Of a stretch of 64,000 bases of DNA, positions 37,801-64,000 are shown in pieces. Numbering within the stretch: the first letter of the stretch is position 1; every line of letters starts with the position of its first letter. A program made the position numbers. The stretch is from the NCBI RefSeq assembly GCF_055900595.2, contig NZ_CM148325.1. One strand, 5' to 3'.

Positions 37801-40800
37801 CGCTCACTACGCGCGAAGTGGCTGAAACTATCAGCAACGGCGAAGCCGGATGCTTTATGCACGGGCCAACCTTTATGGGCAATCCGCTGGCCTGCGCGGC
37901 AGCAAACGCCAGCCTGGCCATTATCGAATCTGGCGACTGGCAGCAGCAGGTAGCGACTATTGAAGCACAACTGCGCGAGCAACTGGCTCCTGCCCGTGAC
38001 GCCGAAATGGTTGCCGATGTGCGCGTGCTGGGAGCGATTGGCGTGGTCGAAACCACTCGTCCGGTGAATATGGCTGCGCTGCAAAAATTCTTTGTCGAAC
38101 AGGGTGTCTGGATCCGACCTTTTGGCAAGCTGATTTACCTGATGCCACCCTATATCATTCACCCGCAACAGTTGCAGCGCCTGACCGCAGCGGTTAATTG
38201 CGCGGTGCAGGATGAAACATTTTTTTGCCAATAACGAGCAGTCAGCGTGAGGTTTTCTGGCTACACTTTCTGCAAACAAGAAAGGAGGGTTCATGAAACT
38301 CATTAGTAATGATCTGCGCGATGGCGATAAGCTGCCGCATCGCCATGTCTTTAACGGCATGGGTTACGATGGCGATAATATTTCGCCGCATCTGGCATGG
38401 GATGATGTTCCTGCGGGAACCAAAAGTTTTGTCGTCACCTGCTACGACCCGGATGCGCCAACTGGCTCTGGCTGGTGGCACTGGGTAGTTGTTAACTTAC
38501 CCGCTGATACCCGCGTATTACCGCAAGGGTTTGGCTCTGGTCTGGTAGCAATGCCAGACGGCGTTTTGCAGACGCGAACTGACTTTGGTAAAACCGGGTA
38601 CGATGGCGCAGCGCCGCCGAAGGGCGAAACTCATCGCTACATTTTTACCGTTCACGCGCTGGATGTAGAACGTATTGATGTCGATGAAGGTGCCAGTGGC
38701 GCGATGGTCGGGTTTAACGTCCATTTCCACTCTCTGGCAAGCGCCTCGATTACTGCGATGTTTAGTTAATTGCTCAACCAGATGGCGCAATGCTATCTGG
38801 TATCACTTAAAGGTATTAAAAACAACTTTTTGTCTTTTTACCTTCCCGTTTCGCTCAAGTTAGTATAAAAAAGCTGAACGTGAAACATTAAAAGCCATTA
38901 ATATCAATGCATTACAATATTTTTAGTCTAAAAAATAGACTACATAATGCTACAAAACACAACATACCCAGTCACTATGAATCAACCACTTAGATGGTAT
39001 TAGTGACCTGTAACAGAGCATTAGCGCAAGGTGACTTTTTGTCTTCTTGCGCTAATTTTTTGTCAAACACATTACGTCGTTTGCTGAATTTACAACCATG
39101 CTCAGTATCTCGATAAGCGCAGAGAAATGATGCAGTGGTGGGCGGATTGGCTTGATGAAAAGGTGTAGCAACCAACATTGCTATATCTCAGATAGCACAA
39201 AGCCTTGCAATCCAGTGCAAAGCTTTGTGTGTCTCAGTTTTGTCTCATCGGTAATTATGTGTTCGCTACGATGCAAGAATCCATACCAATAAGCATCCGA
39301 TAATTGGGAAAGAAAAATCCAACAAACTTCCCACATCCCACACGCGTGGATCAAAACCTCCCCACCACGGCATGTTGACACGTTTCCCTTTCCCAAACTT
39401 TTCTATCCAGCGATATTCTGCCTGGGTGTGTTCACGCGCAATGAAGAACGTACAACCGGCTATCGCACCGTAAGCCCAGTTTCCGGTAAAAATACCAACC
39501 AGTACCTGAGCCGCAAAAGCGCAAAGCGAGTGAAGAAATGGAGTGACATCAATGCTCTTAATCATGAAACTTCCCCATTGGTTGAAAATATGGCTCCTCC
39601 AACTCCAAGTGTATTTCGTGTTGTGCTCAACCTAAGAGGGCTGGAGTCAGAATTAGAATATCCTGTAGCAGAAATAAAAGATCCTCCACTAATAGTCAAC
39701 TGCGGAACATCGGCTATATCTGAATAAGTTCTGTCAGCAACAGTATTATTTATAGCCACATGTGATCCAAAAAAACTTCTTATTGTTTGGTTTTTAACTT
39801 TACTTCCTTCAATGGTTATCCTACTACCACAGTCAGCAATAAATCCTGAATCTGCATCCAGCGTTGCATTCATAAAAGAAGCTTCAGATCTCTCTACATC
39901 AATCCATCTAATATCTTTTGTGGGATTTGCACCAAATACATGACAAATATTAGAGTTAAACCTTACACCATCTTGGAGGTGCATTAATTTTTTTATATCT
40001 GTACCCCATAGCCTTGGAAAATTAACAGATGCTCCTGCATGGCAATCAAATCCCAGCTCAACCCCTGAGATATCTACAGCCTTTCCGGAAATAACAGCAC
40101 CAGTGTCTGCATTAACGGCTGTTCCACAATTGCGCATATCATTACCAGCAACATCAACACAACCCGCACCATCAATACGCACACCAAGTGCACATCCATA
40201 AAAACCTTTTTCAATATTTGGTTCAAGGACTTTACCACTTGTTTCTGCATCACTTTCTTCAACGTCATGTCGTCTTGCATCAACATATGCTGTATGAATG
40301 CACGTTAATCCACGATATGAGCAATGTATAGTTTTATGGTCGCGTATATTAACATTTGAACCATCTCTTACATTCCATCCTATATAACAATAGCTTGCAC
40401 TTGACCCCTGAAAATCTGCTTTAACATTATAAATACAATTAACTGACGCAACCGTACTCTCTGTGCACCGTTCAAACTTACTTACAGGCATTGATGCCTT
40501 GACATTATTTACCAGTTGCAGGGAAGAGTATCTGCTATAAGAAAAATCACATACGTAATACCCTTCTGGCATATATGCAGCAACACTTTCCTCATCAGGA
40601 GCACATCCGGTATGATATGCACTAATTTTTGCACCAAAACTACCATGAATTCCAACGTAGAACTTTCGAGCACCTGAATACGGATAGAAATTAAGTTCAG
40701 CTTTTTGAGTTACAATAAATGCACAAACATCGCTATCATCTCTATTTTCTTCAATCTGAATAGCAAATACAGGACTTTTTGCTGCATCGCAAATGTAAAA

Positions 40801-61800: not shown

Positions 61801-64000
61801 TGGCGGCTATGGTTTGATTCGATTTCGTCTACTGCTTCCTGCCCGATGCGGTTAATCAGTTCGACGCGATACGGAACGAGATTTCCGCTTTTGTGCTGGT
61901 TGCACACCACGCATTGCTTGTGAATATTGCGTTCATCAAATCGGAGTTGAGGTGCCGCAGCAGTTGTCCGGTAATGTCCGGCATCCCACTGAGCAGACGT
62001 GAGCGTTCCGCACGAGATACATGGTAAGTCGCGGTCTCTTTCTCTGATGAAGGCGTTTACGGCTTGTTGGGCTTGTTTAATCCAGTAACTGCGGGGCTTT
62101 AAGGCGAGTTTTCGAATCTTCAGTTTATCTTTCTGTTTCTGCTCCTCTCGTCGTCGTTTCTTCTCTGCTGCTTTTTCCGCTTTTTCGCGTTCTTTACTTC
62201 GTCGTTCGAGTGCTAATTGAGTTCCGTGTTCCGGGCTGCACCACCACTGATTTGAGAATGCCGGGTGAAACCATTCCTTGCAGATTTTGCATTTCCTTCG
62301 CGCTGGTTTAGCCATCGTCTTCTTCCTCGTACATTGAGCTATTCGGATCGCTCATCAGTTCTGCGCAGCAGTGCTCACACACGTGAACTTCCAGCACATG
62401 CAGCTTCTGACCGCAGTTAGCGCACGTTAAAGCCCGCTCGACGCTTTGTTGTTCGTAACTTCGATTTGGGTCAATCACCTTGTTTTCCTCGCACGTTCTC
62501 TAAGCCACCGGATATCCCACAGGTGAGCCGTGTAGTTGAAGGTTTTTACGTCAGATTCTTTCGGGATTGGCTTGCGTTTATTTCTGGAGCGTTTCGTTGG
62601 AAGGTATTTGCAGTTTTCGCAGATTATGTCGGTGATACTTCGTCGCTGTCTCGCCACACGTCCTCCTTTTCCTGCGGTAGTGGTAACACCCCTGTTGGTG
62701 TTCTTTCACGCCGGAGACACCATCGATTCCAGTCAGGTTGATTTGGTCGGAAGCGGTTATCTTCTTTGCATTCACCGCACCGATAACATCGCATCATGCA
62801 GCTTCCCTCCCGAAGTCGAAATAAAGCTGCCCTCCAAATATTTCGCATGACTCAGAACAAGAGCCGGTATCGAATCTTTTAGCTCGTACCATGTCCTGAT
62901 ACAGGGCTTGATAATCATTTTCTGAATACATTTTCGCGATACCATCCAGCGACATTCTTCCTCGGTACATAATCTCCTTTGGTGTTTCCCGATGTCCGTC
63001 ACGCACATGCGATCCCGTGATGACCTCATTAAAAACACGCTGCAATCCCTCCTCATCTTTACAGGCAAGTCCGATTTTTTGCGTTGATTTTTTAATGCAG
63101 AATATGCAGTTACCGAGATGTTCCGGTATTTGCAAATCGAATGGTTGTTGCTTCCACCATGCGAGGATATCTTCCTTCTCAAAGTCTGACAGTTCAGCAA
63201 GATATCTGATTCCAGGCTTTGGCTTTAGCCGCTTCGGTTCATCAGCTCTGATGCCAATCCACGTGGTGTAATTCCCTCGCCCGAAATGGTCATCACAGTA
63301 TTTGGTGAAGGGAACGAGTTTTAATCTGTCAGTGCAGAACGCGCCGCCGACGTATGGAGTGCCATATTTCTTTACCATATCGATAAATGGCTTCAGAACA
63401 GGCATTTTCGTCTGAATATCCTTTGGTTCCCATACCGTATAACCATTTGACTGTCCAAGCTCTGGGTTGATATCAACCTGCAATACAGTGAGCGGTATAT
63501 CCCAGAACTTCACAACTTCGCGGATAAACCGATATGTCATCGGGTGTTCACAACCTGTATCCATGAAAACGTAATGCACGTCTTCACCTGCCTGTCGCTT
63601 TTGCTCCATTAGCCAGAGCAAATATGCTGACGTCCTGCCACCGGAGAAACTAACGACATTTATCATGCAGCCCTGTCTCCCCATCTTGCTTTCCACTCCA
63701 GAGCCAGTCGCGCTTCGTCTGACCACTTAACGCCACGCTCTGTACCAAATGCCTGTATAAGCTCTAATAGCTCCGCAAATTCGCTTACACGCATCCTGCT
63801 GGTTGACTGGCCTATTACCACAAAGCCATTCCCGGCAAGGTTAGGAACAACGTCCTGCTGCTTTAATGCTGCTGTAAAAACGCACTTCCAGCTTTCTGCA
63901 TCCAGCCAGCGACCATGCCATTCAACCTGACGCGAGACGTCACCAAGGCAAGCCCAAAGTTTCCGATTTTGGTCTAAGCTGCGGTTACGTTCCTGAATGG

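Follow-up and report, generated by a model that had tools for sequence, protein, structure and literature searches.

The window, that is the whole stretch of 64,000 nucleotides (nt) analysed here (contig NZ_CM148325.1 of assembly GCF_055900595.2), carries from position 38860 to its end a region that we read as part of a mosaic P22-like prophage, inserted beside the host gene ybhB at the attachment site of phage lambda. From 39.2 kilobases (kb) to the end of the window, the large open reading frames (ORFs) all lie on the minus strand, and the whole order is tailspike, immI remnant, virion genes, terminase, two accessory genes, Rz/Rz1-R-S, a leader of 970 base pairs (bp), Q, and ninI to ninB. 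Each prophage ORF was compared with phages lambda, P22, CUS-3 and JEP4 and with the prophage of Escherichia coli EC332, by tblastn at the protein level and by blastn at the DNA level. The joint between host and phage is made of the following features.

38293-38769: ybhB, the host gene left of the core
38860-38874, no strand: att core, the prophage/host joint of attR (core match and comparison with an empty-site strain)
38875-39065, minus strand: lambda-type P arm (88.1% identity to lambda, alignment, lambda 'int 1' and 'int 2' annotations)
about 38969-38981, within the P arm: P2 arm-type site
about 38996-39011, within the P arm: P1 arm-type site
39020-39030 and 39046-39056: the two arms of the tI/sib hairpin, with a T-run at 39057-39062 on the plus strand
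39088-39168, plus strand: fossil of the 3' end of a CUS-3-type (argW-type) int gene, last 26 codons plus stop (tblastn)

The 15-bp att core is the reverse complement of GCTTTTTTATACTAA, and positions 38856-39065 of the window are 88.1% identical in DNA to lambda 27534-27742 (blastn; 210 bp). In a four-way alignment, the sequences under the lambda 'int 1' and 'int 2' arm-type sites are kept almost base for base, and the tI/sib hairpin (ATTAGCGCAAG...CTTGCGCTAAT) and the subsequent T-run are conserved at nearly every base relative to lambda. This hairpin was read directly from the sequence and was not flagged by a simple terminator scanner, because its loop is longer than 8 nt. On the host side, the joint is flanked by ybhB, bioA and bioB. 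E. coli Z0117EC0005, whose backbone is 100% identical to window 31000-36000, has an empty site in which ybhC stands directly beside ybhB; its sequence equals that of the window through the core inclusive and diverges at the very next base, and the attL of EC332 carries the continuation of the empty-site sequence beyond the core. Whether the joint is shared with the empty-site strain had been named as a point of possible refutation, and when tested the joint was found to be shared. Because the P arm matches that of lambda and the empty-site strain diverges right after the core, the joint at 38860 is a precise attR (P-O-B'), the product of a lambda-type integration at attB(lambda) between ybhC and ybhB; the ybhB side of this interval lies within the window and the ybhC side is seen in relatives. 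The original prediction had described a textbook lambda-family attR with core, P arm and sib/tI, and a prophage right end adjoining ybhB/bio as in lambda: the core, the P1 and P2 sites, the hairpin and the empty-site strain agree on the first point, and the presence of ybhB, bioA and bioB beside the core on the second. The same ybhB-attR-phage-end joint is present, over at least 80% of its length, in eight complete E. coli genomes. The int fossil is preceded by a stop codon and is identical to CUS-3 Int residues 359-384 at 26 of 26 amino acids, the DNA of its region being 85% identical to CUS-3 1266-1385; these 26 codons beside the lambda P arm show that a lambda int/att module took the place of a CUS-3-type one.

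Beyond this joint lie the genes of the virion and of DNA packaging, listed here with their identities at the protein level.

39266-39565, minus strand: protein of 99 amino acids encoded downstream of the tailspike gene (phrog_1443; hydrophobic on reading)
39562-41619, minus strand: tailspike, with a P22-type head-binding domain and a receptor-binding domain without solved relative
42984-44825, minus strand: ejection protein gp16, 74% to P22
44822-46237, minus strand: ejection protein gp20, 86% to P22 (N-terminal half)
46248-46940, minus strand: ejection protein gp7, 93% to P22
46943-47398, minus strand: gp14, 92-93% to P22 and 95-99% to CUS-3
47398-48099, minus strand: tail needle gp26, 97% to CUS-3 and 61% to P22
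48099-49517, minus strand: gp10, 99% to CUS-3 and 93% to P22
49527-49988, minus strand: gp4, 99% to CUS-3 and 41% to P22
50199-51458, minus strand: coat, 95% to CUS-3 and 28% to P22 gp5 (Pfam P22_CoatProtein, 1.8e-74)
51477-52370, minus strand: scaffold, 99% to CUS-3, no P22 match
52461-54662, minus strand: portal, 99% to CUS-3 and 35% to P22 (Pfam P22_portal on the identical contig)
54662-56158, minus strand: large terminase, 92% to P22 gp2, no CUS-3 match
56136-56624, minus strand: small terminase, 100% to P22 gp3, no CUS-3 match
56648-57046, minus strand: Gp49-family protein, accessory gene
57335-57856, minus strand: KilA-N/ORF11CD3 protein, accessory gene

From Q through the tailspike gene, every late gene is an intact ORF, in P22 order, on one strand and without gaps, and the syntenic order 3-2-1-8-5-(orf)-4-10-26-14-7-20-16 ... 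9 of P22, CUS-3 and JEP4 is found here as well. Pfam and PHROGs concur with these assignments (Head_binding, P22_CoatProtein, P22_portal, GP3_package, Terminase_6N/6C), and do so too for the lysis and control genes (Phage_lysis, Phage_holin_3_1, Antiterm, Metallophos, NinB-NinH). That the structural genes match the P22-like family is therefore supported by the Pfam P22_portal and P22_CoatProtein assignments and by the matches to P22, CUS-3 and JEP4. The small terminase, predicted to be virtually that of P22, is so exactly, and the coat is indeed not of the P22 sequence type, although it belongs to the same Pfam family. The predicted P22-like virion module stands as to family and gene order, but the coat is not alone in departing from P22: portal, scaffold and gp4 are of CUS-3 type too. 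On these identities, the head module (portal, scaffold, coat and gp4) is CUS-3-type and the terminase P22-type. The presumed P22 pac 22-mer (GAAGATTTATCTGAAGTCGTTA) has one exact match, at 56336-56357 inside the small-terminase gene, where none is expected by chance. In the tailspike, residues 1-113 form the Pfam Head_binding domain (1.9e-65), 74-76% identical to P22, and the matches in the PDB are confined to residues 1-160 (Sf6 gp14, P22 gp9); residues 114-685 share 99.8% identity with their counterparts in JEP4 and HZ41, and the PDB search returned no solved relative for them. The protein of 99 amino acids is 100% identical in JEP4 and EC332.

Further into the prophage, the lysis genes, the late leader, Q and the nin genes follow.

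58058-58495, minus strand: Rz, 60% to lambda and 92-94% to P22/CUS-3
58111-58323, minus strand: Rz1, embedded in Rz, 41% to lambda and 92-94% to P22/CUS-3
58492-58968, minus strand: endolysin R, 98% to lambda
58952-59275, minus strand: holin S, 99% to lambda
60139-60111, minus strand: intrinsic terminator of P22/HK620 type, short and strong
60201-60173, minus strand: late promoter pR' (TTGACT-17-TAAATT), start region as in lambda
60244-60867, minus strand: late antiterminator Q, 100% to lambda Q and 96% to P22 gp23
60864-61529, minus strand: ninI/orf221, 97% to lambda
61507-61713, minus strand: ninH, 100% to lambda
61710-62315, minus strand: ninG, 94% to lambda
62308-62478, minus strand: ninF, 95% to lambda
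62475-62657, minus strand: ninE, 95% to lambda
62624-62794, minus strand: ninD, 96% to lambda
62794-63666, minus strand: ninC, 97% to lambda
63663 onward, minus strand: ninB, cut by the window end, 99% to lambda

Positions 60144-64000 are 97.0% identical in DNA to lambda 40747-44609 (blastn), and the near-identity to lambda announced for Q, orf221 and ninB-H holds at the protein level (100% for Q, 94-100% for the others). As regards the lysis genes, the same claim is right for S and R but not for Rz and Rz1, and the lysis cassette is a hybrid of lambda/CUS-3-type S/R and P22-type Rz/Rz1. The pR'/qut region was also said to be that of lambda: this is true of the promoter and of the start region, the -35 and -10 elements and the first 10 or so transcribed nt being conserved, but the leader then switches to the P22/HK620 type, terminator included, and comparison of the leaders revealed no lambda 6S RNA/tR' terminator.

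The former immI region, between the tailspike gene and gene 16, contains three genes.

41766-42134, plus strand: mnt homologue (Pfam Arc and Repressor_Mnt; Mnt homology to 42005)
42033-42464, minus strand: predicted lipoprotein gene, a moron at the arc/ant position (signal sequence with lipobox Cys on reading; phrog_6823; weak PEGA match)
42570-42959, plus strand: predicted secreted protein of 129 amino acids (phrog_2651), convergent with gene 16 and in the place of sieA in P22

Over 80 amino acids, the mnt homologue and P22 Mnt share 76% identity, and no homologue of arc, ant or sieA was found in the region by tblastn or Pfam. The earlier statement that immI is reduced to mnt only is thus correct in the absence of arc and ant, but what is left of mnt is changed at its C-terminal end, and the annotation of EC332 lists it as a pseudogene. 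The lipoprotein gene is absent from JEP4, P22 and CUS-3, and the protein of 129 amino acids has no homology to SieA. The immI or 'ant moron' region has lost arc and ant and gained two exported-protein genes, which could be candidates for superinfection exclusion or lysogenic conversion. An anti-phage defence role for the morons, or for the genes of the low-GC islands of the host backbone described below, was considered and set aside, PADLOC giving no significant match. The interval from gene 16 to gene 9 is highly variable ('ant moron' turnover) across P22-like phages (PMC2629481).

Of the phages, Escherichia phage JEP4 (MT740315, Lederbergvirus) matches best and covers 66% of the region at 96%. 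JEP4 has an attP aligning with the lambda P and P' arms and an Int of 356 amino acids 99.2% identical to that of lambda, and it shares with the window the int fossil, orf99, the tailspike (97%), the CUS-3-type head genes, the P22-type terminase and lambda-type ninH/ninI; it differs by its own Q, by an immI region with Rha, KilA and a c2-like repressor, and by divergence in gp16 and in the C-termini of gp20 and gp26. A comparison with 5,426 complete E. coli genomes placed EC332 (NZ_AP039429.1) first; its prophage extends from 1,573,126 to 1,612,331 between ybhC and ybhB, with direct repeats of the core 39,205 bp apart. This prophage is complete, with the layout ybhC-core-int-xis-early genes-nin-Q-lysis-virion-tailspike-core-ybhB, and it is identical in DNA to the window at 99.9% over 38800-60878 and at 99.8% over 62484-64000, the attR, int fossil, tailspike, morons, virion genes, lysis genes, leader content and Q being common to both. 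Between these two segments, window 60878-62484 carries the lambda-type ninF-ninG-ninH-ninI and EC332 carries ninX, Roi/KilAC, DUF1364, RusA and a different ninH, a difference that looks like a recent single-module exchange. The Int and Xis of EC332 are 99.4% and 98.6% identical to those of lambda. Its early region is itself a mosaic, with N 93% identical to lambda N, cII 86% and abc2 94% identical to P22, and a repressor of its own type (33% to lambda cI, 52% to P22 c2); no lambda P, exo, bet or gam was found there. The lambda-type regulatory module that had been predicted is accordingly upheld in part: Q is within the window and N is lambda-type in the EC332 relative, but the repressor of that relative is not.

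In the case of CUS-3 (CP000711), portal, scaffold, coat, gp4, gp10, gp26 and gp14 are 95-99% identical to those of the window and S, R, Rz and Rz1 are 93-100% identical, whereas the terminase is Sf6-type, the tailspike is an endosialidase, the integrase is argW-type, an ant gene is present and Q is different. With P22 are shared the virion gene order, gp3 (100%) and gp2 (92%), the presumed pac 22-mer, the mnt homologue, gp10, gp7 and gp14 (92-93%), Rz/Rz1 (92-93%) and the head-binding domain of the tailspike (74-76%). P22 differs in portal (35%), coat (28%) and gp4 (41%), in an unrelated scaffold, and in its arc, ant, sieA and gtrABC genes, which are not in the window prophage; furthermore, it integrates at thrW with a different Int (PMC2629481). 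Lambda contributes likenesses in the att core, the P arm with P1, P2, tI and sib, the pR' promoter, the chromosomal site, Q (100%), ninB-ninI (94-100%), S (99%) and R (98%), but its head and tail genes, Rz/Rz1, leader terminator, bor and b region are not shared and, judging from the EC332 relative, the repressor, replication and recombination genes are not those of lambda.

Taken together, these comparisons make it very probable that window 38860-64000 comprises the 25 kb nearest attR of a temperate P22-like (Lederbergvirus-type) podovirus prophage at attB(lambda), which measures about 39 kb as a whole in its closest relative. The mosaic prophage at att-lambda announced by the original prediction, in which lambda-type modules are combined with a full P22-family virion set, is what emerges from the comparisons with lambda, P22, CUS-3, JEP4 and EC332, and its genome is a patchwork of known modules with visible scars. 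Several points weigh against this reading. Int, xis and attL lie beyond the window, and the completeness of the prophage in this strain is deduced from its relatives; the ORFs are intact, which is no proof of function; the mnt frame has other residues in place of the last three of Mnt and continues to a length of 122 codons, and its identical copy in EC332 carries a pseudogene label in RefSeq.

The element could then be a defective remnant, a late half whose int/attL side has been deleted or rearranged and which would neither excise nor produce phage. The left end is indeed outside the window and the mnt homologue is altered at its C-terminus, but none of the late and nin ORFs, 30-odd in number, is disrupted, and they follow the same order as in the free phage JEP4. 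Furthermore, contig DAZWYA010000005.1 (GCA_043978215.1), which matches window 51710-64000 at 100%, goes on for another 8.3 kb to the left, across replication and immunity genes (ninB, primase/helicase, O, cII, cro, a cI gene for a repressor of 210 amino acids, a Rad52-family recombinase, HNH and the start of an SSB gene), and this extension is 99.97% identical to EC332, whose prophage has int, xis and attL. We therefore regard a remnant as improbable. A mis-joining of lambda-like and P22-like parts, whether from two prophages or from a chimeric assembly, would account for the sharp switches of closest relative along the region, but the same joints are found in the finished EC332 genome (one 22-kb alignment at 99.9%) and in a second assembly at 100%, those of the att/tailspike end are found in the packaged JEP4 genome, and we give this explanation next to no credit.

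The temperate, mosaic P22-like prophage is retained, and its biology would be the following. A lambda-type Int, with Xis and the host factors IHF/Fis, would have made attL and attR and could reverse the reaction, excision requiring both Int and Xis. In the prophage, as in lambda, att would stand between sib and int, and the two would be uncoupled. After induction, Q would modify RNA polymerase at pR'/qut, and the resulting readthrough of the leader terminator would give one long leftward late operon. The P22-type gp3/gp2 terminase would initiate headful packaging from the pac site located in gene 3, and the CUS-3-type portal, scaffold and coat would build the procapsid, which gp4, gp10 and gp26 would close while forming the tail hub and needle; gp7, gp20 and gp16 would be ejected with the DNA. 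A short-tailed virion and pac-initiated headful packaging are thus predicted from the P22-type gp3/gp2 and from the exact copy of the presumed pac 22-mer. The tailspike would dock through its P22-type head-binding domain, and the domain common to JEP4 and HZ41 would recognise a surface polysaccharide. The S holin, the R endolysin and the P22-type Rz/Rz1 spanin would lyse the cell.

Such mosaicism is the rule for lambdoid phages, and the arrangement is not unusual: it is present in JEP4, a free phage, as well as in several complete E. coli genomes. Prophages of this kind are thoroughly known, and public genomes contain near-identical copies of this one; nothing in it is unexpected except a small, conserved cassette in the late leader that resembles transfer-messenger RNA (tmRNA). 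It lies between two long hairpins.

60034-60101, minus strand: first boundary hairpin, with loop CUUAUGGGGCUUGGCUU, 94% identical to its copy in P1-like plasmids
59854-60019, minus strand: tmRNA-like cassette of 166 nt (resume-type context, 10-codon frame, hairpin, two pseudoknots)
59599-59685, minus strand: second boundary hairpin (CACAACAGGTAAGAG...CTCTTTCCGTTGTG), whose loop holds a T-arm-like hairpin, GUAGAGUUCGACUCUCUAC

Some 350 bp between the two hairpins have no counterpart in lambda, P22, CUS-3 or JEP4, and the cassette is the first 166 nt of this stretch. It contains UAAAU GCA AAC GAU GAU UUG AUG UUG AUG GCG GCC UAA, in which the frame GCA..TAA, at 59962-59930, encodes the tag-like peptide ANDDLMLMAA*, with a hydrophobic C-terminal end; there is an in-frame stop eight codons upstream and no start codon. 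The boundary hairpins, downstream of the leader terminator, are built on CACAACAGGTAAGAG...CTCTT.CCGTTGTG with varying loops, and in one loop the canonical T-loop arm GUAGAGUUCGACUCUCUAC precedes a closed stem that looks like an acceptor. They bracket cassettes both in the late leader and in the transfer RNA (tRNA) clusters of P1-like plasmids, single copies are present in lambda, CUS-3, JEP4 and HK620, and these hairpins could serve as signals for processing or be remnants resembling tRNA. The cassette is separated from the second hairpin by a further stretch of some 165 nt (59690-59853, minus strand), which carries a T-loop-like hairpin (GGCAGGUUCGAUUCCUGAC) and the motif CGCCGUUAGCUCCACGAAACGGAGC, the latter conserved in P1-like plasmids too; the segment shares about 77% identity with 'hypothetical protein' regions in the siphophages Bas77-79 and PJ16.

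With the default settings of ARAGORN and the gathering thresholds of Rfam, no tRNA, tmRNA or known RNA family was detected in the prophage. Below threshold, the cassette gives partial Rfam matches to tmRNA_permuted and beta_tmRNA; tmRNA_permuted scores range from 22.9 to 34.9 bits for a gathering score of 47, the window cassette scoring 22.9, and the cassette family does not reach the curated Rfam tmRNA threshold. Relaxed ARAGORN runs pick the tag consistently and assign inconsistent tRNA domains. A tRNA-like domain (acceptor stem with G3-U70, T-arm and CCA) was sought with ARAGORN and by checking candidate pairings against the P1-like and other copies, and none was found. Two arrangements were rejected in this way. 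In a one-piece tmRNA, GGGGCUU of the first hairpin loop would pair with UAGCUCC-A (about 59700), a G3-U pair included, but the P1-like copy changes the 5' strand without compensation and the 3' strand is locked in the conserved local hairpin GCUCC-ACGAAAC-GGAGC. In a two-piece tmRNA, the second hairpin (GUAGAGUUCGACUCUCUAC plus CGUGGG/CCCGCG) would be the acceptor piece, but its acceptor-like stem is self-contained, is not complementary to GGGGCUU and is missing in other family members.

Downstream of the frame, a hairpin and two pseudoknots were examined in an alignment of 26 sequences. Thirteen of the 17 proposed pairs are compensatory, 90.7% of the cells pair, versus 41-55% with the partners slid, and the observed value was reached by none of 500 shuffles on four of five measures and by 4 of 500 on the fifth. 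The frame itself is equally constant. Eighty copies of the short-tag family present 20 nucleotide versions of the 33-nt frame, all 20 consist of 10 codons and a stop, and 17 end in Ala-Ala with third-position changes at those codons. Ten tag variants found by pattern matching, together with the two in HK620 (ANEEMYLAVA) and Vi01-like phages (ANDNTFLAVA), all have 10 codons, with synonymous changes across phages.

The cassette is widely distributed and nearly all of its copies are unannotated. It is matched in 760 of the 5,426 E. coli genomes, mostly on P1-like plasmids in the dmt-ban interval, beside tRNA-Asn and tRNA-Thr genes, and it occurs also in other lambdoid prophages and in P1/P7-like phage-plasmids. 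Matches were obtained in 265 phage records, including P7, HK620, Vi01-like and N4-like phages (PD38, Pollock) and Skatevirus; EC332 carries it, and it is absent from lambda, P22, CUS-3 and JEP4. In viral contigs (IMG/VR), a 17-mer from the resume region identified 120 loci. The same 17-mer scan gave canonical tmRNA genes on viral contigs, mostly of the permuted two-piece form, with tags that include ANDDSFTPMALAA, ANDDFAPVDYALAA and ANDDAFYGEVRLAA. These tmRNAs are consistent with the phage-borne two-piece tmRNA of marine methylophages, one of which has been described (PMC9004378). The phage cases of tmRNA surveys are limited to a mycobacteriophage, Bacillus phage G and similar ones (PMC4131195, PMC11915505), and we found no description of this enterobacterial-phage tmRNA-like element in the open-access full-text literature, an earlier description elsewhere being possible.

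The cassette resembles tmRNA by its resume context (UAAAU GCA AAC GA...), by a frame of 10 codons that closes with Ala-Ala before its stop, and by the downstream pseudoknots. It differs from tmRNA in that it is without assignable acceptor stem, T-arm or CCA, scores below every curated threshold, and lies, flanked by long hairpins, within the late leader of a phage or among clustered tRNA genes. In the first hairpin, the loop (CUUAUGGGGCUUGGCUU) is similar to the 5' start of the coding piece in the permuted tmRNAs of the same scan, which hints that the cassette may descend from a permuted tmRNA gene whose acceptor piece was lost. We tentatively propose, as a possibility still short of probable, a widespread and unannotated RNA family of Enterobacterales phages, descended from tmRNA, with a selected 10-codon frame like a degradation tag and two pseudoknots, and without a tRNA-like domain of its own. 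It is rather unlikely, in our judgement, that the cassette is instead an inert and functionless relic, left by a captured tmRNA gene and travelling with mobile boundary sequences. The missing tRNA-like domain, the rejection by ARAGORN at default and by the Rfam gathering thresholds, and the fact that lambda, P22, CUS-3 and JEP4 do without it would all suit such a relic; the compensatory pairs and the shuffles, the constant length of the 20 frame versions with wobble changes at their Ala-Ala ends, and the retention of the cassette in unrelated temperate and virulent phages (P1/P7, HK620, Vi01-like, N4-like, Skatevirus) argue against it.

The host backbone, window 1-38859, is 95-97% identical to that of EC332, versus 99.9% for the prophage. 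The two backbones differ by about 4-5% in this region while the prophages are this close, a pattern that fits a recent horizontal spread of the phage, by infection, between E. coli lineages. A host other than E. coli, considered in view of the 95-97% identity to EC332, is ruled out by 15 complete E. coli genomes that match the backbone at 99% or more, at least one of which has an empty att site.

Elsewhere in the backbone, two low-GC islands and a variable stretch were noted. The first island (3767-8060, GC about 30-35%) lies between dinG and rhlE, where EC332 has a PaaA2/ParE toxin-antitoxin pair instead; the second (25889-30654, GC about 27-35%), between yvcK (ybhK) and uvrB, is absent from EC332. 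Their genes are the following.

3955-5967, minus strand: protein of 670 amino acids with a SopA-like HECT-type E3-ligase catalytic domain
6271-7956, plus strand: protein of 561 amino acids, no Pfam match
26064-27332, minus strand: SopA/SopA_C protein
27395-28360, minus strand: pentapeptide-repeat protein
28844-30496, plus strand: protein of 550 amino acids, no Pfam match

The SopA-like protein of the first island may be a type III effector, and the gene set of the second resembles an EspX/NleL-like effector set. The variable stretch (18772-20993), around ybhL/ybhM, includes an extra or divergent Bax1-I family gene (20190-20930, minus strand) without alignment to EC332. A molybdenum-cofactor riboswitch (24570-24714, minus strand; Rfam RF01055, 104.5 bits) stands upstream of moaA, an ordinary and expected place.

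In conclusion, the prophage is a further mosaic in a family whose evolution by modules has long been textbook matter, with its variable ant-moron region, its exchangeable integrases and its several coat types. Its main use is a clean annotation, which gives the exact joint, the module origins gene by gene, and the int fossil as the scar of a swap of the integration module. The tmRNA-like cassette, if functional, would represent a new class of phage RNA. It might act with an acceptor piece supplied separately, or it might interfere with host trans-translation, for instance by re-tagging proteins or by titrating tmRNA-binding factors late in infection. If so, the manipulation of ribosome rescue by phages would become directly testable in model systems of the lambda, P22 and P1 types.

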